Shown piece by piece: positions 1,848 to 24,767 of a stretch of 26,995 bases of DNA. Under the pieces are notes generated by a model. That model was given only the letters and a program-made list of their open reading frames with translations. It did no database searches and was not told where the DNA came from. This stretch comes from Gemmatimonadales bacterium (GTDB lineage: Bacteria > Gemmatimonadota > Gemmatimonadetes > Gemmatimonadales > GWC2-71-9): contig JBDIWC010000050.1 in assembly GCA_039794085.1 (NCBI GenBank), positions 1 to 26,995 on the forward strand. The letters run 5' to 3'. The stretch's first letter is position 1. Every line of letters starts with the position of its first letter. The position numbers and the translations under genes were made by a program.

Positions 1848-3881
1848 CTACCTCCTCACCAGCGTCAGGATCACATAGCTCGCCACCGGCTCGTCGTCCT
1901 GATTGGTCACTTCCACGTCCCACGCCACCACGCCCTGGGGCGGCTGTCCCTCCACCGGCTCCTTGGCCGTCTTCTGCTTCACCGTAAGACGCGCCCGTAT
2001 CGTGTCCCCGGGGTAGACCGGCTTCACGAACCGCAGGGTCTCCAACCCGTAGTTGGCGAGCACCGGCCCCGGCGCGGGATCCACAAAGAGACCCGCCGCC
2101 GCCGACAGCACGAAATACCCGTGGGCCACCCGCCGCTCGAAGATCGAATCCCGGGCGGCCAGCTCATCAGTGTGGGCGTAGAAGGTGTCGCCGCTCACGC
2201 CGGCAAAGTTCACGATGTCGGCCTCGGTGACGGTGCGCCGATGGGTGAGGCGCGACTCCCCGATCTCCAGCTCGTCGAAGGTTTTCCGGAAGGGATGCAC
2301 CCCATCCGACGTGGTGTCGGCGCCGCGGGTCCACTCCCCGGTGATCCGGGCCAGCGTCGTGGGCGACCCCTGGATCGCGGTCCGCTGCATGTAGTGCATC
2401 ACCCCGCGGGCTCCCCCCATCTCTTCCCCACCGCCGGCGCGTCCCGGGCCCCCGTGCACCAGGTGCGGCAATGGCGACCCATGCCCGGTCGACTCCCGGG
2501 CCGCGTGACGGTTCATCACCATGATCCGCCCATGCCACGCCGCAGTGCCGAGCACCACATCCCGCGCGATGCGATCATCGGCGGTGAAGAGGGATCCGAC
2601 CAGGCTCCCCTTCCCCCGCTTGGCCAGCGCGATGGCATCGTCCACGGTGTCGTACGGCATCACCGTGTTGACCGGCCCGAACGGCTCGATGTCGTGCGCC
2701 TGGGTGTTGGTGAACGGCTGGTCGCAGTACAGAAGCAGCGCCGGGAAGAAGGCGCCCCGTTCCCGGTCTCCCCCGTCCAACGCAAAATCCTCGAGCTGGC
2801 CATGCACGAGTTCACACCCGGCGCGGAGGGCCTCCACCGTCCGCCGGACCTCGTCCACCTGGCCTCGGCTCACCAGCGGCCCCATGCGCACCCCCTCCCG
2901 GGCCGGATCGCCCAGCACCGCCTTGTCCAGCCTCTTCCCGATCGCGTCCACCACCGAATCGACCCGATCGGCCGGCACGATCGTCCGCCGGATCGCAGTG
3001 CACTTCTGTCCCGCCTTCACCGTCATCTCCCGGACCACCTCCTTCACGAAGAGATCGAACTCCTCCATGCCGGGAGTGACGTCGGGACCGAGGATGCAGC
3101 AATTGAGGGAGTCCGCCTCCATGTTGAAGCGGACCGAGTTCTCGATCATGGCCGGGTGGACCTTGAGCTTCCGGCCCGTGACGGCGGATCCGGTGAAGGT
3201 TACCACGTCCTGGCAGGTGACGTGATCCAGCAGGTCGCCGGCTCCGCCACAGATGAGCTGCAGCGCTCCCTCCGGCAGAATCCCCGACTCCAGCATCACC
3301 TGAACCATGCGATGGGTGAGATAGCTCGTGGCCGTGGCCGGCTTCACGATGGCCGGCATCCCGCCGAGGAAAGTGGGGGCGAGTTTCTCGAGCATGCCCC
3401 AGCAGGGGAAGTTGAAGGCGTTGATGTGGACCGCGGTTCCCTCCAGCGGCACCGCGAGATGCCGGCCCACGAAGGTGCCCCCCTTCGAGATCGGCTCCAC
3501 GCCGCCGTCGAGGTGGAAGCGCTCATCGGGGAACTCCCGCCGCCCCTTGCTCGCGTACACGAAGAAGGTGCCGATGCCCCCCTCGATGTCGATCCACGAG
3601 TCGGTCTTCGTGGCCCCGGTGGCGGCACTGAGCGGATAGAACTCGTCTTTGCGCGACATCAGATACTGGGCCATCGCCTTCAGCATCCGCGCCCGTTCGT
3701 GGAAGGTCATCGCCCGGAGCGCCGGCCCGCCAACGTCCCGCCCCCAGGCGAGCATTCCGGCAAAGTCGAGTCCGGTGCTCGTGGCATGGGCCACCGGCTC
3801 GCCGGTCACCGCATGACAGAGCGCGGTTCCGTCTCCTGTCCCTTCCACCCACTGTCCGCCCGCATAGCTCGGCAACTTCAT
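1848..3881 (-). CDS. paaZ: Bifunctional oxepin-CoA hydrolase / 3-oxo-5,6-dehydrosuberyl-CoA semialdehyde dehydrogenase
   Basis: 677 aa. ALDH domain (INAFNFP, FTGS, EADSLN, GQKCTA) fused to a C-terminal MaoC hot-dog domain ([16 protein letters not shown]). paa context. Confidence 0.96.
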
Positions 3882-4537
3882 TCCTGCGACTCCTTGGCTG
3901 AAGTGGCGGGAGACGGTGCACCACTCGGCGCACCCTCCTGTCGAGTGATGGTCCAGGGCCGGTACCCCCCCCCCACCTCCTGCACCGGGCGGTCCGCGGG
4001 CACGCTCCGCAGCGGCTCCACCGCCCGGAGCGAGCGATCACACGCCTCCGGCAATCGTTGATAGAGCCGCGTGCCCTCGGTTTTCCAGGCGAGCATCTCG
4101 TCGCTCACCTCCTTCACGACCCGGGCGGGGTTCCCCACCACCACCGACCGGTCCGGAATCCGCATCTCGGCCGGCACGAAGGCAAGAGCCCCCACGATGC
4201 ACTCCGCCCCCACCACGGCCTGGTCCATCAGTACCGCGTTCATCCCTATCAGGCTGTTGCGTCCCACCTGCGCCCCGTGCACCACCGCGCCGTGCCCGAT
4301 GTGCGCCCCCGTCTCCAGCCGGACCGTGATGCCCGGGAACATGTGGACGGTGCAGTTCTCCTGCACGTTGCACCCCGCCTCGAGCACGATGCCCCCCCAG
4401 TCCCCCCGGATTGCGGCGCCCGGGCCGATGTAGCAGTCGGGCCCGATGATCACGTTGCCCGTCACCGCCGCCTGCGGATGCACGAAGGCCGTCGGGTCCA
4501 CCACCGGGATGAACCCCTCGAAGGCGTAGCAGGTCAC
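3878..4537 (-). CDS. paaY: PaaY-like hexapeptide-repeat (gamma-carbonic-anhydrase family) protein
   Basis: [30 protein letters not shown] and HIGHGA motifs. Its stop overlaps the paaZ start (ATGA). Confidence 0.9.
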
Positions 4538-4584: not shown

Positions 4585-4863
4585 CGTCATCCCCGCGAAA
4601 GAACAGCTCCTCACGCGGAGACGCGGAGGCGCGGAGGGGTGTACAAGGCTGGGATGACCGGCAACTCCAGGCCCTGAGAAATGAGTGACCCCACTCCCCA
4701 ACCACCAACCATCACAGGGAGTTCGGGGTACGAGGGGTGATCTCATCGACTCAACCTCCGCGTCTCCGCGTCTCCGCGTGAGCCCACTCCGGATCCCGGG
4801 AGGCACGACCCCACAGGGAACCCCGAGGCGCCGAAAATGGATCCCTGCGTGCGCGGCACTGAC
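4585..4863. repeat. Nested inverted-repeat composite between paaJ and paaY
   Basis: Inner 28-bp inverted pair of octamer arrays at 4610-4637 and 4755-4782 (1 mismatch). Outer degenerate CGTC-type halves at 4585-4601 (cgtcatccccgcgaaag) and 4838-4863 (tggatccctgcgtgcgcggcactgac). Confidence 0.8.
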
Positions 4864-4909: not shown

Positions 4910-6127
4910 TCATCCGGCCCGCTCCAGGATCGTGGCCATCCCCTGCCCCACGCCGATGCACATGGTGCAGAGCGCGTAACGGCCACCCGTCTCCCTCAGT
5001 TGATGCGCCGCCGTGAGGAGAAGCCGTGCACCCGACATCCCGAGCGGGTGTCCCAGCGCGATCGCCCCGCCGTTCGGATTGATCCGGGCGTCGTCATCGG
5101 CCAGGCCGAACTCACGGGTACAGGCCAGCGACTGCGCGGCAAAGGCCTCGTTCAACTCGATCACGTCCATGTCGTCCATGGTGAGCCCAGCCCTTGCGAG
5201 TGCCATCCGCGACGCCGGCACCGGGCCGATCCCCATCACCCGCGGTTCCACCCCCGCCACGCCGGACGACACCACCCGCGCGAGCGGCGCAACACCCAGC
5301 GCCTCGACTCCAGCCTCGCTCGCGAGCAGAAGGGCGCACGCCCCGTCGTTGATCCCGCTCGAGTTTCCCGCCGTCACCGTGCCGCCGGACCGGAACGCGG
5401 GCCGCAGCTTCGCCAGGGCCTCCAGGGTGGTCCCGGGACGGAGAAACTCGTCCTCCCGCATCACCACCGGCTCCGGCTGCCGCCGGCTGGCCGACACCGT
5501 CTCAACCGCCACGATCTCCCGCTCGAATCGCCCGCCACTCCGGGCCCGCGCCGCCTTCTCCTGCGACCAGACCGCGAACCGGTCCTGATCCTCCCGCGCG
5601 ATAGCAAACCGTTCCGCCACGTTCTCGGCCGTCTCCCCCATGGCGTCGGTTCCGTAGCGTTCTTTCATCACCGGATTGACGAAGCGCCACCCGATGCTGG
5701 TGTCGAAGAGTTCCGCGGTCCGGGCCCAGGCCTGCGGGGCCTTCGACATCACGTAGGGCGCCCGGGTCATCTGCTCCACGCCACCCGCGAGGTACAGGTC
5801 TCCCTCCCCCAATTTGATGGCCCGCGCGGCCGACACCGCCGCACTCATGCCCGAGGCGCAGAGCCGGTTCACCGTTTCCCCCGGCACCGACCAGGGGAGC
5901 CCCGCCAGGAGCAGCGCCATGCGCGCCACGTTCCGGTTGTCCTCCCCCGCCTGGTTGGCGCACCCCAGGATCACGTCGGTAATCCCCGCCGGGTCGAGAC
6001 CGGGGTGACGCGACAGGAGCGACCGCAGAACGTGCGCCGCGAGGTCGTCCGCCCGAACCGGCGCCAGACCGCCGCCGAACGCCCCGATCGGAGTGCGAAC
6101 CCCATCCACCAGAAATGCCTCGGCCAT
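4910..6127 (-). CDS. paaJ: 3-oxoadipyl-CoA / 3-oxo-5,6-dehydrosuberyl-CoA thiolase (PaaJ/PcaF)
   Basis: GCANQAGEDNRNVARM, NRLCASG, NEAFA, GHPLGMSG and CIGVGQG motifs. Start refined to the ATG at 6127 (GGAG upstream). Confidence 0.94.
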   Translation of the reverse strand: MAEAFLVDGVRTPIGAFGGGLAPVRADDLAAHVLRSLLSRHPGLDPAGITDVILGCANQAGEDNRNVARMALLLAGLPWSVPGETVNRLCASGMSAAVSAARAIKLGEGDLYLAGGVEQMTRAPYVMSKAPQAWARTAELFDTSIGWRFVNPVMKERYGTDAMGETAENVAERFAIAREDQDRFAVWSQEKAARARSGGRFEREIVAVETVSASRRQPEPVVMREDEFLRPGTTLEALAKLRPAFRSGGTVTAGNSSGINDGACALLLASEAGVEALGVAPLARVVSSGVAGVEPRVMGIGPVPASRMALARAGLTMDDMDVIELNEAFAAQSLACTREFGLADDDARINPNGGAIALGHPLGMSGARLLLTAAHQLRETGGRYALCTMCIGVGQGMATILERAG

Positions 6128-6278
6128 GCCGTCTCCCGCTCCTGTCTGTGTCAATCGGCCCGATTCACGCGCCGGGCCCTCGTCAATCCGGGGAAATCTA
6201 GTTTATTTGTCGAGCGAGCGAATCGTATCGTACCACGCGGAAGAACCACCCGTACCACCTGACTGACCCCGGAGCACC

Positions 6279-7061
6279 ATGGCGTATCGGTACATCGAGC
6301 ATGAGGAGGGAGACGGAGTCGCCCGGATCGTCCTCAACCGGCCCGACGTCCTCAACAGCATCCACACGGCGATGGCGGACGAGATCCGGCAGGCGCTGGA
6401 CGCGGCCGCCCGCCCCGAGATCCGCGCCGTGTATCTCACCGGAGCGGGCCGGGCCTTCTGCGCGGGCCAGGACCTCGCCGAGGTGGCACCCGGGTCGGGC
6501 CGGGAGGACTTCGCTCAGCAGGTGCGCACCGTCTACACCCCGCTGGTGCTCGCCATCCGGCGCCTGGACAAGCCGGTGGTCTGCGGAGTGAACGGGGTCG
6601 CGGCGGGTGCGGGCGCCAATCTGGCCCTGGCCTGTGATCTGGTGGTCGCGGCCGAATCGGCCTCCTTCGTCCAGGCCTTTGCCAGGATCGGTCTCGTGCC
6701 CGACACCGGGGGAACCTGGTTTCTCCCCCGACTCGTCGGCCTGGCCCGGGCCACCGCCCTCACGATGCTCGGCGAGAAGCTCGCGGCCGCGGAGGCGGAG
6801 CGAATCGGGATGATTCACCGGGTCTGTCCCGATGCGGAGCTGGAGGCGGTGGCGGGAGGGCTCGCGCGCCACCTCGCCACCCAACCGACCACCGGGCTCG
6901 CCCTCACCAAGCGTGCCCTGCACGCCTCTCTCTCAAACTCACTGGAGTCCCAATTGGAGCTGGAAGCCGAGTCGCAGGGCATCGCGGGCCGCACTGCCGA
7001 CTACGCCGAGGGGGTCGCCGCATTTCAGGCCCGGCGGGCGCCCTCCTTCACGGGGCGCTGA
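6279..7061 (+). CDS. paaG: 2-(1,2-epoxy-1,2-dihydrophenyl)acetyl-CoA isomerase (crotonase family)
   Basis: FCAGQDL, GVAAGAGANLALACD and IGLVPDTGG (PaaG-type Asp). GGAG RBS. Confidence 0.9.
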   Translation: MAYRYIEHEEGDGVARIVLNRPDVLNSIHTAMADEIRQALDAAARPEIRAVYLTGAGRAFCAGQDLAEVAPGSGREDFAQQVRTVYTPLVLAIRRLDKPVVCGVNGVAAGAGANLALACDLVVAAESASFVQAFARIGLVPDTGGTWFLPRLVGLARATALTMLGEKLAAAEAERIGMIHRVCPDAELEAVAGGLARHLATQPTTGLALTKRALHASLSNSLESQLELEAESQGIAGRTADYAEGVAAFQARRAPSFTGR

Positions 7062-7063
7062 GC

Positions 7064-8248
7064 GTGGCCATTCTCACCAGGGGCACCACCGTGGGCGTGC
7101 TGGGCGCCGGCACCATGGGCGCCGGGATCGCACAGGTGGCGGCCACGGCGGGCCATCCCGTGCAGCTCATGGATGCGAGTGCCAGCGCCATCGAGCGGGC
7201 CCGGACCGACCTGCGCCGCCTCCTCGACCGTCAGGTGGCCAAGAACCGCCTCAGCACCACCGACGCCGACGCCATCTTCGGCCGCGTCTCCTTTCATGCC
7301 GGCACCGATCCCGCCCCGTTCGCCCCCGCCGGAATCGTCATCGAAGCGATCATCGAGCAGCTGGAGGCCAAGCGACAGGCCTTCCTCCAGATCGAGCAGG
7401 TCGTGTCGCCGGCCACGATCCTGGCCACCAACACCTCCTCCCTCTCGGTCACCGCGGTGGCGGGGGCCCTGGTCCACCCGGACCGCGTGGTCGGGATCCA
7501 TTTCTTCAACCCCGCGCCGCTCATGCCCCTGGTGGAGGTCGTGCCGGGACACCGCACCACAGCCGCCGTGACCGACGCCGCCGCCGCCGTCGTGCGCCGC
7601 TGGGACAAGACGGTGGTCATCGCGAAGGACACGCCGGGGTTCATCGTCAACCGCGTGGCTCGGCCCTTCTACGGCGAGGCGCTCCGAATCCTGGAGGAGC
7701 AGATCGCCGACGCCGCCACCGTCGACTGGGCGATGCGCGAACTCGGCGGGTTCCGCATGGGGCCCTTCGAGCTCATGGACCTGATCGGAAACGACGTCAA
7801 CTTCGCCGTGACCTGCTCGGTGTTCGAGGCCTTCTTCGGGGACCCCCGCTACCGCCCCTCGATCACCCAGCAACGGATGGTCGAGGCCGGCCTCCTGGGA
7901 CGGAAGACCGGACAGGGACACTTCTCCTATGCCGCGGACGCCAAAGCGCCTCAACCCACCCGCGACACCGATCTCGGCCGCCGGATCGTGGATCGCATCC
8001 TCGCCATGCTGATCAACGAGGCCGCCGAGGCAGTGCGTCTCGGGATCGCAACGATTGAGGACATCGAGACGGCGATGACCCGCGGCGTCAATTATCCGAA
8101 GGGGCTCCTCGCCTGGGGTGACGAGATCGGGTGGAGCGAAGTTCTCACTCGGCTGACCGCCCTGCAACAGGAGTACGGTGAGGATCGATACCGGCCAAGC
8201 CCCCTGGTGCGTCGTCTCGCAGCAGATGGCGGAACCCTCACCCGATGA
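7064..8248 (+). CDS. paaH: 3-hydroxyadipyl-CoA (3-hydroxyacyl-CoA) dehydrogenase
   Basis: GAGTMGAGIAQ, NTSSLS, HFFNPAP and DTPGFIVNR motifs, plus two C-terminal 3HCDH helical modules. GTG start 2 nt after paaG. Confidence 0.9.
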   Translation: MAILTRGTTVGVLGAGTMGAGIAQVAATAGHPVQLMDASASAIERARTDLRRLLDRQVAKNRLSTTDADAIFGRVSFHAGTDPAPFAPAGIVIEAIIEQLEAKRQAFLQIEQVVSPATILATNTSSLSVTAVAGALVHPDRVVGIHFFNPAPLMPLVEVVPGHRTTAAVTDAAAAVVRRWDKTVVIAKDTPGFIVNRVARPFYGEALRILEEQIADAATVDWAMRELGGFRMGPFELMDLIGNDVNFAVTCSVFEAFFGDPRYRPSITQQRMVEAGLLGRKTGQGHFSYAADAKAPQPTRDTDLGRRIVDRILAMLINEAAEAVRLGIATIEDIETAMTRGVNYPKGLLAWGDEIGWSEVLTRLTALQQEYGEDRYRPSPLVRRLAADGGTLTR

Positions 8249-8703
8249 TGACCTCCGCTCCCGCTCTCCTGCAGGCCCAGCGGATCGTCGCGGCCATGAT
8301 GTCGCAGGACCGCTTCAGCCAGTGGCTCGGCATCGAGATTCTCGACGTGGCACCGGGCACGGTGCAGCTTGCAATGCGGGTTCGGCCGGACATGGTGAAC
8401 GGCCTTGGCGTCTGTCACGGGGGAGTGACCTTTGCCCTGGCTGACAGCGCCCTGGCCTTTGCCTCCAATGGTCACGGCCGGGTGGCCTTCAGCGTGGACA
8501 CGAGCATCACCCATTCCGCTCCCGTCCGTGACGGCGACATCCTCACCGCCCACGCGACAGAGGAGGGAACGACGAAACGTCTCGGCTTCTATCGCGTCAC
8601 CGTGACCAACCAGAACGGCACGCCCGTGGCCTGGTTCCGAGGCACCGTGCTTCGAACCGACACCGCGCACGAGATCGCCCCCTCCTCCCGGACGGAGCAG
8701 TAG
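8245..8703 (+). CDS. paaI: (Hydroxy)phenylacetyl-CoA thioesterase, hot-dog fold
   Basis: NGLGVCHGGVTFALADSALAFASN motif. ATGA overlap with paaH. Confidence 0.92.
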   Translation: MMTSAPALLQAQRIVAAMMSQDRFSQWLGIEILDVAPGTVQLAMRVRPDMVNGLGVCHGGVTFALADSALAFASNGHGRVAFSVDTSITHSAPVRDGDILTAHATEEGTTKRLGFYRVTVTNQNGTPVAWFRGTVLRTDTAHEIAPSSRTEQ

Positions 8704-8706
8704 ACC

Positions 8707-10788
8707 ATGGCCCCACCCCCGACACCCTTCTCCACCGGCCCGCTCGACTGGCGCCGCGTCGCGCGCCTGGTGCTCGCCTCCCGCGCCCTCGACGACATCG
8801 AGGAGCAGCAGCTCGTCCCTCAGAAGAAGGTGCTCTACCAGTTCAGCGCGCGCGGGCACGACGTGGCCCAGGTCATCCTCGGATCGATGCTCACCCACCC
8901 GCACGACGCCGTGAGCGCCTACTACCGCTCCCGGCCGATGCTCCTCACCGCGGGGCTCACTCTGGAGGATGCCTTTGCCGGGCCGATGGGGAAGTCGGGA
9001 GGGTTCAGCGATGGCCGTGACATCGGCGTGGTGTGCAACCTCCCACCGTTGAACGGCCCCACCGTGCTTCCCATGGCGGGGGACGTCGGGAGCCAGTACA
9101 CCCCCGCCGCCGGCTGGGCTCAGGCCATCCGCTACCACGACACCGTCCTCGGCGACGCCACCTGGCGCCACGCCGTCTCCGTCGTGCTCGGCGGCGAGGC
9201 CTCGGTGGCCACCAACGGGTTCTGGTCCGCGCTCACCATCGCCACCACCCAGCACCTCCCGATGCTCTTCTACATCGAGGACAACGGCTACGGCATCTCC
9301 GTGCCCGGCGCCTTCCAGACACCCGGCGGCAACATCGCCACCAATCTCGCAAGCTTCACCCATCTCACGATCCGCGAGGGCGACGGAACCGACCCCGTCT
9401 CAACGGAATCAATCTTCCGTGAGTCTGTGGGGTTGCTCCGCGAGGGCCAGGGCCCTGTCTTGGTGCATCTCACCGTTCCGCGCCTCTCGGGACACTCGGG
9501 ACAGGACACCCAGGCCTACAAGCCGCCCGAACTGCTGGCACGGGAGACGGCGAACGACCCGCTCCCCAAGCTCAGGACCCATCTGGTCCCCTCGACCCTG
9601 AGCGAAACGGAGTGGGCCTCCCTCGAGGCGGAGGTGGCCGCGGAAGTCCAGACCGCGCTGGAGGGCGCCCTGGCCCGCCCCGAATCCGATCCCGCGCAGA
9701 TCCGCCGGCATGTGTTCCTCGAAACGCTGCCCGACGGCACACCCGATCGGCAGCGGGTGGGGGGATGCCCCCAACCGATGTCGCAAGGGTCAGATGTGGC
9801 CGCTCCCGAGGGCCCGCGGATCAACATGCTCACCGCGATTCGCCGCACCCTGGAACAGGAGCTGGTGGGCAACCCGCGGCTCCTCGTGTTCGGAGAGGAC
9901 GTCGGTCCCAAGGGAGGGGTGCACGCCGCCACGATGGGGCTGCAGGTGGCCTTCGGGGAGGGTCGCGTCTTCGATACCTCGCTCTCCGAGGAGGGCATCA
10001 TCGGCCGGTCGGTCGGAATGGCGATCGCCGGCCTCATGCCGGTGGCCGAGATCCAGTTCCGCAAGTACGCCGATCCCGCCACGGAGCAGCTCAACAACTG
10101 CGGCACCATCCGCTGGCGCACCCACAACCGGTTTGCGGCCCCGATCGTGGTCCGGATGCCCGGCGGCTTCGGCAGCAAGTGCGGCGACCCCTGGCACAGC
10201 GTGTCGGGAGAGGTCACCTGGGCCCACGCGGTCGGATGGCAGGTCTGCTATCCCTCCAACGCGGAGGACGCCGTCGGGCTCCTTCGCGCCGCCATGCGGT
10301 GCCAGAACCCGACCATCTTTTTCGAGCATCGCGCCTCGCTCGACGGCGTCTGGGCCCGGCGTCCCTGGCCCGGCGACGATTTCGTGCTCCCCCTCGGCCG
10401 GGCCCGAACGATCCGGGCGGGAACCGACCTCACCGTGGTCACCTGGGGCGCCATGGTGGAGCGGTGCGAGCAGGCAGCGGGGAGCGCCGGTGGCTCGGTG
10501 GAGATTCTCGACCTGCGGACCATCATCCCCTGGGACCGGGACGCGGTGCTCGAGTCGGTGCGTCGCACCCGGCGCTGTCTGATCGTGCACGAGGACATCC
10601 AGACCGCGGGCTTCGGAGCGGAGATCGCCGCGGTGGTGGCACAGGAGGCCTTCCTCTCGCTCGACGCGCCGGTCTCCCGCATCGCGATTCCCGACATCCC
10701 GACGCCGTACCATCCGGACCTCATGGATGCCGTGGTGCCGAGCGTCGAGGTGATCGCCGAGCGAATGCGCGAGCTGCTCGAATTCTGA
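8707..10788 (+). CDS. 2-oxoacid dehydrogenase E1, fused alpha/beta subunits (ThDP-dependent)
   Basis: 693 aa. Alpha part has a ThDP-motif variant GEA-x24-DN and RLSGHS. Beta part has FGEDV, FDTSLSEEGI, EIQF and the C-terminal EILDLRTI/VHED. It starts 3 nt after the paaI stop. Confidence 0.92.
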   Translation: MAPPPTPFSTGPLDWRRVARLVLASRALDDIEEQQLVPQKKVLYQFSARGHDVAQVILGSMLTHPHDAVSAYYRSRPMLLTAGLTLEDAFAGPMGKSGGFSDGRDIGVVCNLPPLNGPTVLPMAGDVGSQYTPAAGWAQAIRYHDTVLGDATWRHAVSVVLGGEASVATNGFWSALTIATTQHLPMLFYIEDNGYGISVPGAFQTPGGNIATNLASFTHLTIREGDGTDPVSTESIFRESVGLLREGQGPVLVHLTVPRLSGHSGQDTQAYKPPELLARETANDPLPKLRTHLVPSTLSETEWASLEAEVAAEVQTALEGALARPESDPAQIRRHVFLETLPDGTPDRQRVGGCPQPMSQGSDVAAPEGPRINMLTAIRRTLEQELVGNPRLLVFGEDVGPKGGVHAATMGLQVAFGEGRVFDTSLSEEGIIGRSVGMAIAGLMPVAEIQFRKYADPATEQLNNCGTIRWRTHNRFAAPIVVRMPGGFGSKCGDPWHSVSGEVTWAHAVGWQVCYPSNAEDAVGLLRAAMRCQNPTIFFEHRASLDGVWARRPWPGDDFVLPLGRARTIRAGTDLTVVTWGAMVERCEQAAGSAGGSVEILDLRTIIPWDRDAVLESVRRTRRCLIVHEDIQTAGFGAEIAAVVAQEAFLSLDAPVSRIAIPDIPTPYHPDLMDAVVPSVEVIAERMRELLEF

Positions 10789-10802
10789 CGCCCGCGATGA
10801 AT

Positions 10803-10829
10803 CGTCATTCCCACGAACGCGGGAATCCA
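10803..10829. repeat. CGTC-tagged palindrome with ATTCCC-N8-GGGAAT core
   Basis: cgtcATTCCCacgaacgcGGGAATcca between E1 and E2. A related degenerate copy is at 23630-23653. Confidence 0.75.
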
Positions 10830-10868
10830 TGTTGTGCAGGCTGAACCCTTGACCGCGGGACCGTGTGC

Positions 10869-12083
10869 ATGAGCAACCTTGTGGATGTCAAACTCCCCGC
10901 CGATCAGGCCGAGGGAACGGAATCGGTGGCCGGCACCTGGTTCAAGGCGGTGGGAGACGCGGTGACCCGGGACGAGCCCCTGCTCGAGATCAGCACCGAC
11001 AAGGTGACGGTGGAGATCGCCGCCCCGGCCACCGGGGTGCTGCAGGAGATCCTGGTGAGCGAGGGTGACCCGATCGAGGCCGACACTGTCCTTGGACGCA
11101 TCGCGGTCGGTGATCCGGCTGCAGTGCCAACGGCGGCGCAGAAACCGGCGGCCACCGCGCCCGCAGCCGCGGCCGGCGCCCGGGCCTCGACCGCCGTGAC
11201 GGGTTCAGGAGCAGCGCCGGTCATCGAGCTCACCCCCGCCGTCCGCCGCCTCCTCGAGCAACATGGACTCGATGCGGCGTCCATCTCCGGAACCGGTCGC
11301 GGCGGCCGGATTACCGTGCAGGATGTGGAGCAGCATCTCGCCTCGGCAGGAGCCGGTTCGACGGCTCCCACGGCGGACGCGCCTACCGGTCCCTCGCGAC
11401 GGGTGCCGCACACCCCCATGCGGGCTCGGATCGCTCGGCACATGGTGGCGAGCATGCAGACGGCACCGCACGTCACCACCCTCTTCCAGGCCGACCTCTC
11501 CGCCGTGCTCCGGCACAAGGCGGCACTCGCCACTCAGGGCACCCCCGTCACCCTCACCGCCTATTTCGTCAGGGCGGCGGTCGAGGGGATCAAAGTCGTG
11601 CCCGAGGTGAACGCCCGCTGGCATGATGACGCACTTGAACTCTTCGACGATGTGAATCTCGGCATCGCCACGGCGCTGGAGACGGAGGGTGGACTCATTG
11701 TCCCGGTGCTGCGCAGGGCTCAGACCCTGGACCTGGCCGCCATCGGGGCCCGAATCGCTGATCTCACCACCCGGGCGCGCGCCGGCACCCTCACCCCCAC
11801 CGACGTGCAGGGCGGCACCTTCACCATCTCCAACCACGGGGTGAGCGGGAGTCTCCTCGCGGCCCCGATCATCATCAACCAACCCCAATCAGCGATTCTG
11901 GGGGTCGGCAAGCTGGAGAAGCGAGTGGTGGTGATCCCGGGCGCTTCGGGAGAGGAGGACCGGACCGCGGTCCGGCCGATGGTGTACGTCACCCTCACCA
12001 TCGATCACCGGGTGCTCGACGGCCACCAGGCCAACCGGTTCCTGCAGCTGTTCGTGGAGACGCTGGAGAAGTGTGAAGTGTGA
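10869..12083 (+). CDS. 2-oxoacid dehydrogenase E2 (dihydrolipoamide acyltransferase)
   Basis: Single lipoyl domain (EISTDKVTVE), Ala/Pro linker, E3-binding domain (TPAVRRL...GTGRGGRIT) and catalytic DHRVLDG. Confidence 0.93.
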   Translation: MSNLVDVKLPADQAEGTESVAGTWFKAVGDAVTRDEPLLEISTDKVTVEIAAPATGVLQEILVSEGDPIEADTVLGRIAVGDPAAVPTAAQKPAATAPAAAAGARASTAVTGSGAAPVIELTPAVRRLLEQHGLDAASISGTGRGGRITVQDVEQHLASAGAGSTAPTADAPTGPSRRVPHTPMRARIARHMVASMQTAPHVTTLFQADLSAVLRHKAALATQGTPVTLTAYFVRAAVEGIKVVPEVNARWHDDALELFDDVNLGIATALETEGGLIVPVLRRAQTLDLAAIGARIADLTTRARAGTLTPTDVQGGTFTISNHGVSGSLLAAPIIINQPQSAILGVGKLEKRVVVIPGASGEEDRTAVRPMVYVTLTIDHRVLDGHQANRFLQLFVETLEKCEV

Positions 12084-12210: not shown

Positions 12211-12232
12211 GATGTACCCTTCGGCCCCTTCT

Positions 12233-12350
12233 CCTTCGTGCCTTCGTGCCTTCGTGCCTTCGTGTGAATCGACCCCTTCTCCCGAACCCCTTTCCTTCGC
12301 GGCTTCGCGTCTTCGCGTGAGACTTCCTCCCTTCAAACTTCAAACTTCCC
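12233..12350. repeat. Octamer and heptamer tandem arrays
   Basis: (ccttcgtg)x4 at 12233-12264; ccttcgcg gcttcgcg tcttcgcg tgag at 12294-12321; cttcaaa cttcaaa cttccc at 12331-12350. Confidence 0.85.
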
Positions 12351-12351
12351 A

Positions 12352-13221
12352 TCACGGCGCCGTCAACTCCCCGTACGTCTCCGGTCGCCGGTCCCGGTAG
12401 AACTGCCACACGTTCCGCACCTCGCGGATCACATCCAGATTGAGGTCCGCCACCACCAGCTCGTTCTTGTCGCGGCTTCCCTGCGCCAGGGTCTGCCCTC
12501 GCGGATCGCAGAAGTAGCTCTGCCCGTAGAACTCCCCGATGTTCCACGGCCCCTCGACGCCCACCCGGTTGATCGCCCCCACGAAGTACGCGTTGGCCAC
12601 CGCGTGGGCCGGTTGCTCCAGTTTCCAGAGGTACTCCGAGAGTCCCGCCACCGTGGCCGACGGGTTCAGCACGAGCTCGGCGCCATTCAGACCCAGCGCT
12701 CGGGCGCCCTCGGGAAAGTGCCGGTCGTAGCAGATGTAGACTCCCACCCGTGCGTAGCGGGTGTCGAACACCGGGTAGCCGAGGTTTCCGGGCCGGAAGT
12801 AGAACTTTTCCCAGAATCCCGGCGCGCAGTGCGGGATGTGGTTCTTGCGGTACTTGCCGAGATAGGTGCCGTCGGCGTCGATGACGGCGGCGGTGTTGTA
12901 GTAGATCCCGGGACCATCCTCCTCATACAGCGGCGCCACGATGACCATCGCGTGCCGTTTCGCCACCTCCTGCAGCAACCGGGTGGTCGGGCCGTCGGGA
13001 ATCGCTTCCACCGCCTCGTACCAGCGGGCCGTCTGTTCCGCGCAGAAGTAGGGACCGGTGAAGATCTCCTGCATGCAGAGGATCTGCACCCCCTCGCGAC
13101 CCGCCCGTTCGATGAGTTCCAGGTGCTTGTGGAGGTTGGCTTCCCGGATCAGGGGGATCGCCTCGTCGGTGGCGCAGGCATGGGTAGCCTGGATCAGGCC
13201 GCACTTCACGACACGGGGCAT
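12352..13221 (-). CDS. Beta-ureidopropionase (N-carbamoyl-beta-alanine amidohydrolase), nitrilase superfamily
   Basis: Glu-Lys-Cys triad motifs MQEIF, YRKNHIP and ICYDRHFPE, plus FWEKFYF and the C-terminal FYRDRRP. In an operon with dihydropyrimidinase. Start at the ATG at 13221. Confidence 0.88.
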   Translation of the reverse strand: MPRVVKCGLIQATHACATDEAIPLIREANLHKHLELIERAGREGVQILCMQEIFTGPYFCAEQTARWYEAVEAIPDGPTTRLLQEVAKRHAMVIVAPLYEEDGPGIYYNTAAVIDADGTYLGKYRKNHIPHCAPGFWEKFYFRPGNLGYPVFDTRYARVGVYICYDRHFPEGARALGLNGAELVLNPSATVAGLSEYLWKLEQPAHAVANAYFVGAINRVGVEGPWNIGEFYGQSYFCDPRGQTLAQGSRDKNELVVADLNLDVIREVRNVWQFYRDRRPETYGELTAP

Positions 13222-13242
13222 TCGCACACTCCGGGAATCGGG

Positions 13243-14685
13243 TCAGGATCGCGCATCCGGCATCGCCGATCGCATGAAGAGAAGATACAGGATGAAGCTC
13301 AAGGCGAAGGTGACGAACCAGGCGTAGGTGTAGAGATGATCGAGGAACGTCGGCGTCGCCACCATTCCGCCGGGAGTCACCGCGGCACGGAGGAACCCGG
13401 GAACCACCGGCAGCACCGCGAGCACCAGCGCCGCCACGGCCCGCAGGTTGAATCCACGGCGGTAGGTGTACCGGCCCTGGAGCTGGAAAAGCGCCGTGGC
13501 ATCGAGGGTCTGGCGCCGGAGCACCCAATAATCGGCGATGAGGATCCCGCCGATCGCCCCCATGAGGCTCGAATACCCCAGGAGCCAGGTGAATATATAT
13601 GCTGCCGCATCGGCATATAACCGCCACGGCATCATCAGAACCCCGATCACCGCAGTGATGATCCCCCCCATGACGTAGCTGATGCGGCGGGGACTCAGGT
13701 TCGAAAAGTCATTGGAAGGAGACACCACATTCGCCGCCATGTTGGTCGTCACCTGGGCCGCGAGCACCACCAGCGCCGAGAACACGATGGTCCCGGCACT
13801 CCCGATCCGGCTCACCAGCACCACCGGGTCCCACACCGGCTCACCGAAGATTCCGATCGTGGCGCTGGTGACCGCCACGCCGATGAAGGCAAAGGCCGTC
13901 ATCGTGGTCGGAAGACCAAGCGCCTGGCCCAGCATCTGGGAGCGCTGGCTCCGGGCGTACCGGGTGAAGTCGGGAATGTTGAGGCTCAGGGTGGCCCAGT
14001 ACCCGACGTTGGCCGTGAGCGCTGCGGGGAAGAGTACCCAGAACGGGGTGCTCCCGGTCCGGAGCCCCTCGGATCGGGAGAGGATCTCCCCGAGCCCGCC
14101 CCCGGCTCGAATGGCCCACACCAGGAGCACGAGCCCTCCCGCCAGGAGCAACGGTGCCGCCCAGCTCTGCAGCAGCCGGATCCCCTCGGTCCCCTTCAGA
14201 ATGATCGCCACCTGCAGCAACCAGAACGCGGCAAAGGCGTACGCCACTCCCCCCGTCACCTGGCTCCACCCGGGCCACGCCGCACCGAGGAGCAGATTCA
14301 GCGCGAGGGCGCCGATCCAGGTCTGGATCCCGAACCATCCACAGGCCACGATCGCCCTGAGGAGCGCCGGGATGTTGGCCCCGCGCACTCCGAAGCTGGC
14401 CCGGCAGAGCACCGGGAACGAGATGCCGTACCGGGTGCCTGCGTGCGCGTTGAGGATCATCGGGATCAGCACGATCACATTGCCGAGCAGGATCGTGATC
14501 ATCGCCTGCCACCAGGTCATCCCCTGCTGGATGAGACCCGAGGCGAGGGTATAGGTCGTGATGACCACACTCATCCCGATCCAGAGTGCCGCGATGTTCC
14601 AGGTGGTCCAGGTTCGCTGTTCCGGCGTGGTCGGCGCCAGGTCCCGGTTCCAGAGCGGGCTTCCTTCCGCGTCGCTCCCGGTCAC
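13243..14685 (-). CDS. NCS1-family nucleobase:cation symporter
   Basis: Many hydrophobic helices. Motifs GTRYGISFPVLCRASFG, ACGWFGIQTWIG, LSLNIPDFTRY and NMAANVVSP. The GTG start at 14685 overlaps the dihydropyrimidinase TGA (GTGA). Confidence 0.92.
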   Translation of the reverse strand: MTGSDAEGSPLWNRDLAPTTPEQRTWTTWNIAALWIGMSVVITTYTLASGLIQQGMTWWQAMITILLGNVIVLIPMILNAHAGTRYGISFPVLCRASFGVRGANIPALLRAIVACGWFGIQTWIGALALNLLLGAAWPGWSQVTGGVAYAFAAFWLLQVAIILKGTEGIRLLQSWAAPLLLAGGLVLLVWAIRAGGGLGEILSRSEGLRTGSTPFWVLFPAALTANVGYWATLSLNIPDFTRYARSQRSQMLGQALGLPTTMTAFAFIGVAVTSATIGIFGEPVWDPVVLVSRIGSAGTIVFSALVVLAAQVTTNMAANVVSPSNDFSNLSPRRISYVMGGIITAVIGVLMMPWRLYADAAAYIFTWLLGYSSLMGAIGGILIADYWVLRRQTLDATALFQLQGRYTYRRGFNLRAVAALVLAVLPVVPGFLRAAVTPGGMVATPTFLDHLYTYAWFVTFALSFILYLLFMRSAMPDARS

Positions 14686-16097: not shown

Positions 16098-16111
16098 GTC
16101 CGTCTCCCGTG

Positions 16112-18645: not shown

Positions 18646-18690
18646 CGGAACCGCCTTTCGTTGCCATCATCGGATCATTCCCACCCTCAA

Positions 18691-18813
18691 GGGCGGCCCA
18701 CGGGCCGCCCCTACCGCCTACCGCCGTTTCGTTCCCATCCGACGCTCGGGCGACGCTCGCGCGTCGCCCCTGCCACGTCGTCCCTACCGCCTACCGCCTA
18801 TCGCCTACCGCCT
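18691..18813. repeat. Cluster of GTAG-type REPs and CCTACCG heptamer arrays
   Basis: 18691-18714 reads GTAGGGGCGGCCCGTGGGCCGCCC on the minus strand. A second REP is at 18744-18774. (cctaccg)x2 at 18710-18723 and x4 (one variant) at 18783-18810. Confidence 0.85.
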
Positions 18814-18817
18814 GCGG

Positions 18818-20272: not shown

Positions 20273-20315
20273 CGTTCCTCCAACCGGTCGGGGACCGGCA
20301 CTCCGGGAGGATGGA

Positions 20316-20344
20316 AGTCTAGGGAGCCGGAAGCGGGGGCGCAA
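20316..20344 (-). promoter_or_regulatory. Candidate sigma70-type promoter for the pyrimidine operon
   Basis: On the minus strand, TTGCGC (20344-20339), a 17-nt spacer, then TAGACT (20321-20316), about 44 nt upstream of the mmsA ATG. Confidence 0.5.
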
Positions 20345-20372: not shown

Positions 20373-20882
20373 CTAGTGGGGTTTGAAATGCTCGAAGGGC
20401 TGGTGACACGCCTCGCAGCGATGGAGCGACTTACAGGCCGTGGAACCGAAAGTGCTCTCCAGGACCGTGTCGGGTGACCCGCAGAAGGGACACGACACCG
20501 CCCGCACGGTCGGCCCGAATCCGAGCGGCGCCACCGGTTCGGCCGGTCCCGGAGCGGGAGGGGCGATGCCGTAGGCTCGGAGCTTCTCCCGGGCCTCGTC
20601 GGTCATCCAGCCGGTGGTCCAGGCCGGCACAAAGACCCGGCGCACCGTGGCTCGGGTGATCCCATGGGCGGCAAGCGTGTCCCGAACCTCCGCCTCGATC
20701 ACCTCCATCGCCGGACACCCGCTGTAGGTGGGGGTGATGTCCACCCGGACGTCGTCCCCCTCCAGAACCACGTCCCGCACCAGCCCCATCTCGACGATGT
20801 CGAGCACCGGCACCTCGGGATCCTTCACCTCCCGCAGGAGTTCCCGGATCCGTTCCGCCGTGATCGCCGGACTCACGGCCAT
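20373..20882 (-). CDS. paaD: Phenylacetyl-CoA epoxidase subunit D
   Basis: VKDPEVP, TPTYSGCPA, AWTTGWM, CPFCGS, FGSTACK and CEACHQPFEHFK motifs. Confidence 0.95.
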   Translation of the reverse strand: MAVSPAITAERIRELLREVKDPEVPVLDIVEMGLVRDVVLEGDDVRVDITPTYSGCPAMEVIEAEVRDTLAAHGITRATVRRVFVPAWTTGWMTDEAREKLRAYGIAPPAPGPAEPVAPLGFGPTVRAVSCPFCGSPDTVLESTFGSTACKSLHRCEACHQPFEHFKPH

Positions 20883-21670
20883 TACCAGCTCGCTCCCGGA
20901 TGCGACCGGGCCAGGATCTGCATCTCCGCCAGCAGGTGGCCCAGATGCTCGGTATGGTCACCCCGCCGCGCGGGTCTCGCCACGACCGGCACCTCGGGCG
21001 CATGCAGGGTGGCGCGAGCCAGAACCTCCCTCACCGTTTCTTCCCACGGCTCCCGGAGCGTGGCCGGATCCGGGGCGACACCCCGCTCCGCGAGGCGCGC
21101 ATCGACCTCGTCGGTCACGAAGAGTTCCCCGGTGAACCGCCAAAGCTCATTCAGGGCCTGCTGGACCCGAGCGTGACTCTCCTCGGTGCCGTCCCCCAGG
21201 CGAGCCACCCAGGTGCTGCTGTGGCGCAAGTGATAGGTGGTCTCCTTCCGCGAGCGTTCCGCAAGCCCCGCCAGCTCGGCGTGGGAACTCTCCCGCAACC
21301 GGCCGAGGTGGTGCCAGCTCCAGACGTCGAAGAGGAATTGCCGCATCATCGTCATCCCGAAATCCCCGCGGGGCAGCTCCACGAGCCGACAGTTCCGGAA
21401 CTCCACCGCCTCCCGGAAATACGCGAGGGCGTCGGCGTCGCGACCCGCACCCTCGACCGTTCCCGCGAGTCCGAGCAGGAGATTGGCCTGCCCCACCAGA
21501 TCCAGGGCGATGTTCGCGAGCGCGATGTCCTCTTCCAGGATGGGGCCGTGACCACACCATTCCGAGAGCCGGTGACCCAGAACCAGGCGGTCATCACCGA
21601 GCCGGAGGAGGAGCTCGAACAGGTCGAGGTCGGGAGACGAACTGCGCGATGAACCCGATGCGGCTGCCAT
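20882..21670 (-). CDS. paaC: Phenylacetyl-CoA epoxidase subunit C
   Basis: LGHRLSEWCGHGPILEEDIALANIALD, RLGDGTEESH, HTEHLGHLLAEMQ and the C-terminal HPGASW. Start refined to the ATG at 21670. Confidence 0.95.
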   Translation of the reverse strand: MAAASGSSRSSSPDLDLFELLLRLGDDRLVLGHRLSEWCGHGPILEEDIALANIALDLVGQANLLLGLAGTVEGAGRDADALAYFREAVEFRNCRLVELPRGDFGMTMMRQFLFDVWSWHHLGRLRESSHAELAGLAERSRKETTYHLRHSSTWVARLGDGTEESHARVQQALNELWRFTGELFVTDEVDARLAERGVAPDPATLREPWEETVREVLARATLHAPEVPVVARPARRGDHTEHLGHLLAEMQILARSHPGASW

Positions 21671-21695
21671 GAGTCTCACTCTTTCCTCGATAAGG

Positions 21696-22214
21696 TCACT
21701 CCCGGAGACGGCCCGGACTCCACATGTCCATCTTGTACAGAAATCCCTCCCACCGAACCCCGGGTAGCGCGGTGGAAAACCCTCGAGCAAGATCGGCGGC
21801 GACGTCCGCGCTGGCCTGGTCGTGCCGAACACCCAGCGTCAGATTCAGCAGATTCTCCGTGGTGACCGGCCCGTTGAAGGCGAAGATCAGCAGGGTGGCC
21901 TCGGGAACCCAATCTCTCCGGTCCAGAAGGGGAAACGTGAGCACGTGGCGACCGGGCTCCAGCCGGGGAGTGACATCCTCCAGCGGATAGATCAGGCCCA
22001 CCCCGGTCCCTCCCACGAACCGGAGGTGCTCGAACACCGCGATCCATGCGGGGGCTTCGAGCAGGATCGTCGCTTCCTCGCGCGTCCCCCGATCGCGGTA
22101 GAGGCGGGGCGCCATGGTTCCCCACGGGCCCAGCGTTTCCCGATGCGCCCCCGTGGAGGCACACCCGGGCAGCATCACCAGAAGGAAGGCCAGATGGATC
22201 AGACGCCGTCGCAT
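21696..22214 (-). CDS. Hypothetical lipoprotein (172 aa) between paaB and paaC
   Basis: ATG at 22214 after GGGAGAGG. Signal peptide and lipobox MRRRLIHLAFLLVMLPG-C. It fills the paaB-paaC gap with 26- and 25-nt spacers. Confidence 0.7.
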   Translation of the reverse strand: MRRRLIHLAFLLVMLPGCASTGAHRETLGPWGTMAPRLYRDRGTREEATILLEAPAWIAVFEHLRFVGGTGVGLIYPLEDVTPRLEPGRHVLTFPLLDRRDWVPEATLLIFAFNGPVTTENLLNLTLGVRHDQASADVAADLARGFSTALPGVRWEGFLYKMDMWSPGRLRE

Positions 22215-22240
22215 GCCTCTCCCACCGGTGGGGCCACGAG

Positions 22241-22552
22241 TCAGAAGACCCGAACACCCCGCGGGACCTTGTAGAACTGCGGATGCCGGTACGGCTTGTC
22301 GTTTCCCGGGTCGAAGAACGGTCCCGCATCTCCCGGCGCCGACGCCGTGATCGCGCTCGACGGGACGACCCACAGACTCACACTTTCACCGCGACGTGTG
22401 TAGACATCCCGCGCATTCTGCAGCGCGCCCTCCGCGTCGGGCGCATGCACGCTGCCGGCATGTTCGTGGGGGCCACCGCCGGGGGGTTGGGAGAACACCT
22501 CCCAGAGGGGCCACTCCTCTCCCGCATGGGCTTGGGTGTCCGAGGGGGTCAT
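22241..22552 (-). CDS. paaB: Phenylacetyl-CoA epoxidase subunit B
   Basis: [26 protein letters not shown] and [10 protein letters not shown] motifs. ATGA overlap with paaA. Confidence 0.96.
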
Positions 22553-23526
22553 GCCGCCTCCGTCCGGGTCCGGGTTTCCTGTTTCGCCGCATGGGCCCGG
22601 GCGGCGTCCCGCACCCAGGCGCCCTCAGCGTGCGCCGCGCTCCGTGCGGCGAGGCGTTCCGCATTGCAGGGGCCGTTTCCCTTCACCACCTGCCAGAACT
22701 CCTCCCAGTCGATCGGTCCGATCTGCCAATCGCCGCTCGCCTCGTCCAGTCGCAGGTCGGGGTCGGGCAGGGTGAGTTCCACCGCCTCGGCCTGGGGCAC
22801 GGTCAGGTTCACAAAGCGCTGGCGCAGTTCGTCGTTTGTCTTCCGCTTGACCCGCCACCGGAGCAGCTCCGCCGAGTTCGGGGAGTCGGTGTCGCTCGGC
22901 CCGAACATCATGAGGGAGGGCCACCACCACCGGTTCACGGCATCCTGCACCATCGCGTGCTGGGCCGGCGTCCCCCGGGCCAGCGTCGCCACCATCTCGT
23001 ACCCCTGCCGCTTGTGGAAGTTCTCCTCTTTGCAGATCCGGATCATGGCGCGGGCGTAGGGTCCGTAGGAGGCCTTGGCGAGCACCGTCTGGTTCACGAT
23101 CGCCGCGCCATCCACCAGCCACCCGATCACGCCGATGTCGGCCCAGGAGAGGGTCGGATAATTGAAGATGCTGGAGTACTTGGCCTGACCCGTCAGCAGC
23201 TGGTGGGACAACTCGGCCCGGTCGATCCCGAGAGTCTCGGTACCGCAGTAGATGTACAGACCGTGCCCCGCCTCATCCTGCACCTTGGCCAGGAGCCCCA
23301 GCTTTCTCCGGAGACTCGGCGCCCGGGTGATCCAGTTCCCCTCCGGCAGCATGCCCACCACCTCGGAGTGCGCGTGCTGCGACATCATCCGCACGAGCTG
23401 CTTCCGGTACCGGGCCGGCATCCAGTCCTTCGGCTCGATCGATTCTCCCGCCGCGATCCGAGCCTCGAAGCTCGCGATCTGCTCCGGTGATTCCGCCGCG
23501 GGGGCGTTGGGTGTCTGTCCTGTCAT
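22549..23526 (-). CDS. paaA: Phenylacetyl-CoA epoxidase catalytic di-iron subunit A
   Basis: [38 protein letters not shown] and [13 protein letters not shown] motifs. Confidence 0.97.
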
Positions 23527-23712: not shown

Positions 23713-23874
23713 GTCATCCCGAACGGAAGTGAGGGATCTAAGGAGGTTGCAGGTGAACTTCCCACCGTCCGGACTTCGGGGCTCGCCTGCTGTGCCCACA
23801 GGGCCCGGTGAACGCAGCCGACAGGAAGTGCATCCACCAGCCGTCACAGATCCCTCACTTCCGTTCGGGATGAC
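23713..23874. repeat. 162-bp MITE-like element bounded by perfect 27-bp inverted repeats
   Basis: gtcatcccgaacggaagtgagggatct (23713-23739) is the exact reverse complement of 23848-23874, with a 108-bp interior. Confidence 0.88.
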
Positions 23875-24002
23875 GTACCTCATTCCGGACCTCCTTGCTT
23901 CGCGTGCCCAAGGGAACGCGATCACAGACATCGGCGATGACTCCGGCCCCGGTTTACCTTTTCCCCCGGGAAACCACCTTACAAGAACTTCGGGAGCACC
24001 CC

Positions 24003-24767
24003 ATGTCCGACCCCACCCTGTTGACCGCCGGCCGCGTCACCTACCACGTGGAGAAGGGAATTGCCACCATCCAGTTCCACCACCCCAAGAGCAATTCGCT
24101 CCCCGGAGCTCTCCTCCGCGAGCTGGCGCAGACGGTCGACCGGGCTGGTGCAGATCCCGAGGCGCGGGTGGTGGTGCTCCGGAGCGAGGGGGCGGGGGCC
24201 TTCTGCGCCGGTGCGTCCTTCGATGAGCTCAAGGCGATTGCCGATCCCGACACCGGCAAGCGGTTTTTTCTCGGATTTGCCACGCTCATCCTGGCCATGC
24301 GCCGCTGCCCCAAGTTCGTCCTGGCCCGCATCCACGGAAAGGCGGTTGGCGGGGGAGTGGGCGTGGCCGCCGCCGCCGATTACGCGCTCGCCGCGGGGAG
24401 TGCCGCCGTCAAGCTGAGCGAGCTGGCAGTGGGCATCGGGCCGTTCGTGGTGGGTCCGGTGATCGAGAAGAAGATCGGGGCCGCCGCCTTCACCACCCTC
24501 GCGGTCGACGCCACCACCTGGCGGAATGCGGCCTGGGGCCAGCGGCACGGGCTCTTTGCGGAGGTCCACGACACGCCCGAGGCCCTCGACCAGGCGGTGG
24601 ACGCATTGGCCGCCCGTCTGGCGGCGTCCAGTCCGGAGGCGATGGCTCGCATGAAGGCGATGTTCTGGGAGGGCACCGACCACTGGGAGTCGCTGCTCGA
24701 CCAGCGGGCGGCGATCAGCGGGTCCCTCGTCCTGAGCGACGCCGCCCAGCGGGCCATCCGCGGATAG
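24003..24767 (+). CDS. Enoyl-CoA hydratase/isomerase family protein (methylglutaconyl-CoA hydratase-like)
   Basis: FCAGASFDEL, GKAVGGGVG and KLSELAVGIGP motifs. The ATG at 24003 follows GGAG. Divergent from paaA. Confidence 0.88.
   Translation: MSDPTLLTAGRVTYHVEKGIATIQFHHPKSNSLPGALLRELAQTVDRAGADPEARVVVLRSEGAGAFCAGASFDELKAIADPDTGKRFFLGFATLILAMRRCPKFVLARIHGKAVGGGVGVAAAADYALAAGSAAVKLSELAVGIGPFVVGPVIEKKIGAAAFTTLAVDATTWRNAAWGQRHGLFAEVHDTPEALDQAVDALAARLAASSPEAMARMKAMFWEGTDHWESLLDQRAAISGSLVLSDAAQRAIRG

Follow-up and report, generated by a model that had tools for sequence, protein, structure and literature searches.

The stretch analysed here (the window: 26,995 nucleotides, the whole of contig C50 of a 4.16 Mb, 94.7% complete Gemmatimonadales genome) carries genes for a fused E1 and an E2 of a 2-oxoacid dehydrogenase complex within a cluster of paa genes, and we consider it likely that the two proteins, helped by an E3 whose gene lies at another place in the genome, form phenylacetyl-CoA directly from phenylpyruvate by oxidation. 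The predicted phenylpyruvate dehydrogenase E1 is a fused alpha-beta chain of 693 amino acids (8707..10788, + strand; Pfam domains PF00676, PF02779 and PF02780). It is preceded by paaG (6279..7061), paaH (7064..8248) and paaI (8245..8703) and followed by the gene for the E2 dihydrolipoyl acyltransferase (10869..12083, with another in-frame GTG start at 10863), all on the + strand and spaced by 2, -4, 3 and 80 nt. A sequence-only reading of the window had proposed this reaction from the same arrangement, co-oriented genes with E1 starting 3 nt past paaI, and the open reading frame coordinates agree exactly. The nearest relatives of this E1 are in records titled Gemmatimonadales.

Family scans find the PaaABC epoxidase, PaaG and PaaZ of the paa pathway in the window. 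The sequence-only reading saw no acyl-CoA ligase there, and no AMP-binding protein is encoded on the contig; the genome's three such proteins sit on contigs C8, C84 and C15. The search of the genome for paaK that it had called for gave no match in this 94.7% complete assembly. Phenylalanine hydroxylase (PhhA) and the Ior C-terminal domain likewise have no match in the genome, so another entry into the pathway is needed.

Other 2-oxoacid dehydrogenases of the genome are encoded off the window: pyruvate dehydrogenase (PDH) in an operon lipA-pdhA-pdhB-E2-E3 on C61, a Kgd-type 2-oxoglutarate dehydrogenase (OGDH) on C18, a second fused E1 on C4 (37% identical to the window E1) and an alpha plus beta E1 pair on C83. 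For the C4 and C83 proteins the best PDB match is the branched-chain 2-oxoacid dehydrogenase (BCKDH) of Thermus. The window E1 is thus an extra enzyme, and the worry that it might be the genome's only BCKDH falls away. E3 (542 bits) and LipA are encoded on C61, outside the cluster, and C38 encodes another, marginal E3-like protein. With its three Pfam domains, thiamine diphosphate (ThDP) motif, glutamate, two histidines and accompanying E2, the window E1 is of the alpha/beta type. It falls below the cut-offs of the PDH models TIGR03181, TIGR03182 and PRK09212 (120/411, 101/394 and 218/321 bits) and has no SucA match, and the E2 is below the SucB cut-offs and matches the AcoC model at 53.5/307 bits. 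The motifs GRQMPxH and QF(A/x)DY, which we take to be marks of BCKDH and which are observed in the Thermus structure 1um9, are absent from the window E1; the C4 paralogue keeps QMPSH and QFFDY.

The E1 phylogeny that had been suggested as a check was built from beta domains (36 of the 84 clade rows plus the genome's own three paralogues, on very long branches), and a 99/98 branch splits the window-type rows from these paralogues. Since characterised reference enzymes and AcoAB are absent from the tree and the branches are long, it establishes the separateness of the clade but not its nearest kin.

The residues of both proteins suggest working enzymes. The ThDP motif of E1 is G163-E164...N193; across the 84 clade sequences the acidic residue is D in 61 and E in 23, and N193 is kept in all 84. 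Glu428, His263 and His497 are invariant in the clade alignment and were matched to PDB chains; we take them to be the ThDP-activating glutamate and the active-site histidines, the latter linked to reductive acylation. The E2 has one lipoyl domain with its TDKV motif, an E3-binding domain and a catalytic domain with DHRxxDG, according to Pfam, motifs and PDB alignments, and TDKV is present in 63 of 65 near-full-length E2s of homologous loci. Judged by these residues, E1 and E2 look catalytically intact. The alpha segment M128-P-E-H131 of Thermus BCKDH, presumably a lining of the substrate pocket, corresponds to I106-G-V-V109 in E1, and the beta motif QFADY to QFRKY, the motifs of the 84 clade sequences being GRDIGVV and QFRKY. 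The lost side-chain bulk at I-G-V-V would be compatible with a benzyl group, which proves nothing. An AlphaFold model of E1 (pLDDT 88, pTM 0.90) matches PDH and BCKDH beta chains in Foldseek with TMt 0.89-0.95, a sign of the generic fold only; no solved structure of a fused E1 member is among the Foldseek matches.

The E1 gene accompanies paa genes far beyond this genome. From 589 homologous loci we took the 80 best (61-91% identity to the window E1; a ranked, kin-rich set). A paa gene lies within 10 kb of E1 in 58 of them, and in 31 of the 34 whose length reaches 21 kb, so the linkage is not due to chance; the unlinked orthologues that would have spoken against the prediction are not the rule. 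Within the 80 loci there are 70 with E2, 42 with an Lrp/AsnC regulator, 18 with paaK, 10 with an aromatic aminotransferase and none with Ior. Linked loci occur in records labelled Gemmatimonadota, Pseudomonadota, Bdellovibrionota, Acidobacteriota and Calditrichota. In the order of the window's own host we sampled 151 genomes at least 90% complete, counting as window-type any E1 of at least 55% identity (housekeeping fused E1s are at 37-40%). Window-type E1 occurs in 56 and paaA in 55, all 55 of which carry E1; the other 95, including the unpublished G064 and G075, have neither. PaaK-like matches of at least 545 bits were found in only 11 of the 55 paaA genomes, 7 of them over the cut-off, leaving 44 without. 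A second order, that of the L017 host (111 genomes), has E1 in 14 and paaA in 37, with both in 13; the E1 without paaA, in the unpublished G344, lies at a contig end. The expected co-occurrence with paaA thus holds in both orders, with statistics overstated because the genomes are kin. On the Sinorhizobium meliloti megaplasmid an Lrp-E1-E2 set (61%) lies 42 kb from a paa cluster without an annotated ligase, and TIGR02155 has no match on that replicon, the only one searched. This E1 and E2 are probably SMb20020 and SMb20019.

The substrate is best indicated by what stands in for E1 where it is missing. In the second order a fused Ior is found in none of the 13 paaA genomes that have E1 and in 17 of the 24 that do not. 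In a first screen 17 of the 37 had neither E1 nor PaaK; 15 of these have a fused Ior-type protein. All 17 loci were inspected, and of the two left over, G393 has a split E1 accompanied by E2 and Lrp, and G380 an Ior truncated by the end of its contig. The 37 divide into 14 with E1, 18 with Ior and 5 with PaaK only, with no overlap of E1 and Ior; the Ior count leaves out short IorB-type frames and one weak match in a long frame (G364). Scores above the NF009589 cut-off were obtained for the four Ior proteins checked. At locus L118 (3527-5571, - strand) a window-type E1 is broken in two, perhaps by a frameshift or an assembly error, with E2, Lrp and a paa cluster next to it.

Ior and E1 moreover share a position. 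The order paaZ-aromatic aminotransferase-Ior is found in L112, L114 and L117, and its mirror, E1-E2-aromatic aminotransferase-paaZ, in five loci of Hyphomonadaceae/Caulobacterales (L035, L039, L042, L048 and L063). In two reviews (PMC5577590, PMC9765128) Ior1 of Phaeobacter and IorAB of Aromatoleum are described as making phenylacetyl-CoA from phenylpyruvate, and a direct phenylalanine route appears in a section of PMC7497051. Since Ior is credited with this reaction and the slot is shared, E1 and E2 likely perform the same reaction. That two non-orthologous enzymes replace each other at one position is the strongest indication of the E1 substrate, and with the mutual exclusion it supports the very reaction that the sequence-only reading predicted. 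A class-wide alphaproteobacterial sample (181 genomes around the L043 host) has E1 in only two genomes, both of which carry paaA and one of which was the centre of the sampling; of its 21 paaA genomes 19 have a PaaK-like protein, and fused Ior is in neither of the 2 with E1 and in 14 of the 19 others, too few E1 genomes to count for much, though in the same direction.

The same patterns bear on the alternative that E1 and E2 form a second, broad BCKDH for leucine, isoleucine and valine, found beside paa only through shared CoA-ester beta-oxidation and amino-acid regulation. Many homologues are labelled '2-oxoisovalerate dehydrogenase E1 component' by JGI, Thermus BCKDH is the best alpha-chain PDB match, FadB-like genes are in 16 of the 80 loci, and the divergent Lrp regulator is like the Pseudomonas bkdR layout. 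However, the genome already has two BCKDH-like E1s, the clade has exchanged GRQMPxH for GRDIGVV and QFxDY for QFRKY, and E1 tracks paaA and excludes Ior among paaA genomes. We regard this alternative as very improbable.

Several observations weigh against direct oxidation of phenylpyruvate by E1 and E2 as the entry to the pathway. Some concern ligases and other enzymes. Strict anti-correlation with paaK, which the sequence-only reading expected, was not borne out: paaK is in 18 of the 80 E1 loci, comes immediately after E2 in many loci of Steroidobacteraceae, and occurs in 6 of 13 second-order paaA genomes with E1 vs 7 of 24 without (p=0.47). E1 is therefore no simple replacement of PaaK; the two entries are complementary, for phenylalanine and for the free acid, and not exclusive. 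The window's genome holds other possible entries: two long-chain acyl-CoA ligases and an acetyl-CoA synthetase, by which phenylacetate might be activated, a pyruvate:ferredoxin oxidoreductase and a 2-oxoacid:acceptor oxidoreductase. Genes absent from metagenome-assembled genomes are also no proof of absence.

Others concern linkage and the proteins themselves. No paa gene is near E1 in 3 of the 34 full-length loci, or within 12 kb of the Lrp-E1-E2 orthologues on Shinella and Paracoccus plasmids. The sole own-order E1 whose genome lacks paaA is an outlier (55% identity) within a polysaccharide-synthesis cluster (L149:7800-9992, - strand), possibly with another substrate. In E1, Arg452-Lys453 is invariant (84/84) and not accounted for, and the best NCBIfam matches of the E2 are SucB models, below cut-off (272/379 and 290/449 bits).

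The last group concerns E2. In 20 own-order loci, hand-chosen from the 56 E1 genomes, E1 is inside the paa cluster in 19 and adjoined by E2 in only 1. The sister family f2 (L130-L147) has E1 without adjoining E2 in 18 of 18 paa loci, and five f2 genomes have no E2 closer than 45%, so f2 E1 would need a housekeeping E2. E2 adjoins E1 in most of the 80 loci, but a cognate E2 is not universal. In L138 and L142 E1 directly follows paaD on the same strand. A divergent Glu/Leu/Phe/Val-dehydrogenase-like gene lies by the paa cluster in five loci (e.g. L136:12580-13758 and L146:12881-14068, both - strand); it is a candidate phenylalanine dehydrogenase, with a weak Pfam match and 25% identity to the enzyme on contig C1.

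The loci without E2 suit a scheme in which E1 is mainly a phenylpyruvate decarboxylase giving phenylacetaldehyde or phenylacetate, a non-PaaK acyl-CoA ligase activates the product, and E2 is dispensable. E2 is not beside E1 in the f2 loci or in 10 of the 80, the two long-chain ligases are available, and a decarboxylase-plus-ligase route is hypothesised for TpoG/TpoF in a section of PMC11481866. Yet E2 is kept in most of the 80 loci, TDKV in nearly all E2s, and 44 of the 55 own-order paaA genomes are without a PaaK to take the free acid. Both histidines, to which we ascribe reductive acylation, are retained as well, and we hold this scheme to be very improbable. No IpdC-length decarboxylase is among the genome's seven matches to thiamine pyrophosphate enzymes, of which the one on C27, beside a phosphoenolpyruvate mutase gene, was not itself scanned. 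That mutase gene (phosphonate synthesis; L150:5049-6869, - strand) and a mercuric reductase gene on C14 (L153:690-2150, - strand) are further features of the genome.

Least credible is oxidation of a dicarboxylic 2-oxoacid (2-oxoglutarate or 2-oxoadipate type), connected with the lower part of the paa pathway or with the balance of transamination: the invariant Arg-Lys lies close to the ThDP-binding aromatic residues of the beta chain, SucB models are the best matches of E2, and OGDH E1 is the UniRef label of the S. meliloti homologue and also that of SMb20020 in a table of PMC12542648, but the lower pathway as described in the text of PMC9007349 has no 2-oxoacid intermediate, the genome already has a full OGDH, and the exclusion of Ior and the slot shared beside an aromatic aminotransferase are left unaccounted for.

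Under the favoured reading, phenylpyruvate oxidation by E1 and E2, phenylalanine would be converted to phenylpyruvate by an unlinked aminotransferase or by the Leu/Phe/Val-dehydrogenase-like enzyme of C1 (27730-28809). E1, with ThDP and probably as a dimer of the fused chain, would decarboxylate phenylpyruvate and phenylacetylate the lipoyl-lysine of E2, which would pass the phenylacetyl group to CoA. The E3 of the PDH operon would presumably reoxidise the lipoyl group, yielding NADH. The products would be phenylacetyl-CoA, CO2 and NADH, and the paa enzymes would complete the degradation. What the cluster degrades would then come from phenylalanine and not from free phenylacetate, and the ATP-consuming ligase would be skipped.

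The remaining paa genes lie on both sides of the paaG-E2 run, all on the - strand. Upstream are paaZ (oxepin-CoA hydrolase/semialdehyde dehydrogenase; 1848..3881; TIGR02278, 1032 bits, above cut-off), paaY (3878..4537; TIGR02287, 233 bits, below the cut-off of 319.6; 47% to E. coli PaaY) and the thiolase gene paaJ (4910..6154; TIGR02430 and PRK09050 above cut-off), which is divergent from paaG with 124 nt between. Within the run, the epoxide isomerase PaaG scores 332.7 bits with TIGR02280 (cut-off 345; 52% to E. coli PaaG) and the thioesterase PaaI 116.7 bits with TIGR02286 (cut-off 118.9). The 3-hydroxyacyl-CoA dehydrogenase PaaH is above the PRK08268 cut-off and is a short form of 394 amino acids that matches E. 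coli PaaH in two segments, without ∼100 central residues; the short form recurs in gemmatimonad loci. Downstream, paaABCD (20373-23526) comprises paaD (20373..20882; TIGR02159), paaC (20882..21832; TIGR02158, matching from residue 78, so the true start is probably ∼21670) and paaB (22241..22552; TIGR02157), each above cut-off, and the epoxidase catalytic subunit gene paaA (22549..23526; TIGR02156, 502.7 bits). Divergent from paaA is an enoyl-CoA hydratase gene (23895..24767, + strand; PF00378), a candidate PaaF equivalent. An enoyl-CoA hydratase cluster is present in 18 of 33 gemmatimonad paa loci, and position and family suggest that the window gene would belong to it.

PaaX has no match in the genome, and there is no PaaE in it; PaaE is over cut-off in only 3 of the 55 own-order paaA genomes. 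It is reported as required in vitro in a section of PMC9493321, and no conserved redox gene was found among the 33 gemmatimonad paa loci. We rejected E1/E2 as a PaaE replacement: paaE is in 29 of the 80 E1 loci, and the three PaaE-bearing gemmatimonad genomes also carry E1.

The paa cluster is split by a block for reductive pyrimidine degradation (12352-20344, - strand) with genes for a CN hydrolase, an NCS1 transporter, a dihydropyrimidinase, a class III aminotransferase, a PreA-like dehydrogenase and a methylmalonate-semialdehyde dehydrogenase; in locus L009 paaD directly follows E2. A homogentisate-dioxygenase-like gene lies by the paa cluster in three loci. Between paaB and paaC of the window, a reading frame (21696-22373, - strand) with a lipoprotein-like signal stretch has no Pfam or NCBIfam match. 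Intergenic inverted repeats occur at 4610-4782 (28-nt arms of tandem 8-mers) and 23713-23874 (perfect arms of 27 nt). An array of tandem 8-mers follows E2 at 12226-12262. At the contig end (24769-26624, - strand) are genes for a BNR/YCF48-like protein and a Uma2-family nuclease. A scan of the window for promoters and terminators gave no sites, and a single run of an RNA search gave no evidence (word share 0.06).

Among known systems, the BCKDH E1s of Thermus thermophilus (1um9) and Pseudomonas putida (1qs0), and the C4 protein, resemble the window E1 in fold, ThDP motif and catalytic residues, with ∼36-39% identity in the beta half. Unlike them, it is a fused chain of a separate clade with altered alpha and beta motifs, tied to paa genes and not near-universal in the order. 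Ior1 of Phaeobacter inhibens and IorAB of Aromatoleum share with it the proposed reaction and the slot by aromatic aminotransferase and paaZ, but Ior is non-orthologous and uses ferredoxin-type electron transfer in place of lipoyl, E3 and NAD+. E1/E2 lacks the motifs of BCKDH and misses the model cut-offs of PDH and OGDH; it would resemble BCKDH in its chemistry and Ior in its physiology. In L-phenylglycine biosynthesis of Streptomyces pristinaespiralis, PglB/PglC, a PDH-like alpha/beta pair, are 'suggested' to convert phenylpyruvate to phenylacetyl-CoA, in a pglA-E operon for which no E2 or E3 is listed (both from a section of PMC7089894); unlike the window E1 they are biosynthetic, split subunits, compared here by description only. 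With the E. coli paa pathway (tynA-feaB-paaK entry) the window shares paaA, B, C, D, G, H, I, J, Y and Z at 34-66% identity, but paaK, paaE and paaX are not found in its genome and entry is probably at the CoA ester.

That the system is poorly described is true in part. The literature searched describes no phenylpyruvate dehydrogenase complex linked to paa genes, but most subscription journals lay outside that search and a prior description may exist; 'phenylpyruvate' is absent from the text and four supplements of the GapMind paper (PMC9007349). The reaction itself, however, is already described for Ior and suggested for PglB/PglC. Database labels of orthologues are PDH, OGDH, BCKDH or transketolase-domain protein, and the protein group has at least 8000 matches at E<=1e-30, other fused E1s included.

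A wider proposal strikes us as evenly poised: the clade would be an undescribed class of 2-oxoacid dehydrogenases with aryl-pyruvate specificity, matching Ior in role but using NAD+ and lipoyl, and would be the standard paa entry across Gemmatimonadales, where paa would be a phenylalanine pathway without ligase and PaaE; in f2 a lone, specificity-giving E1 would join a housekeeping E2-E3 core. The S. meliloti orthologue makes the phenylpyruvate proposal directly testable. If true, it would name the missing entry step of many PaaK-less paa clusters, reassign a large protein group now under PDH, OGDH, BCKDH and transketolase-domain labels, provide an enzymatic way of making phenylacetyl-CoA, from which tropones and phenylglycine derive, without ATP, and extend the 2-oxoacid dehydrogenase family to an aromatic class of substrates.

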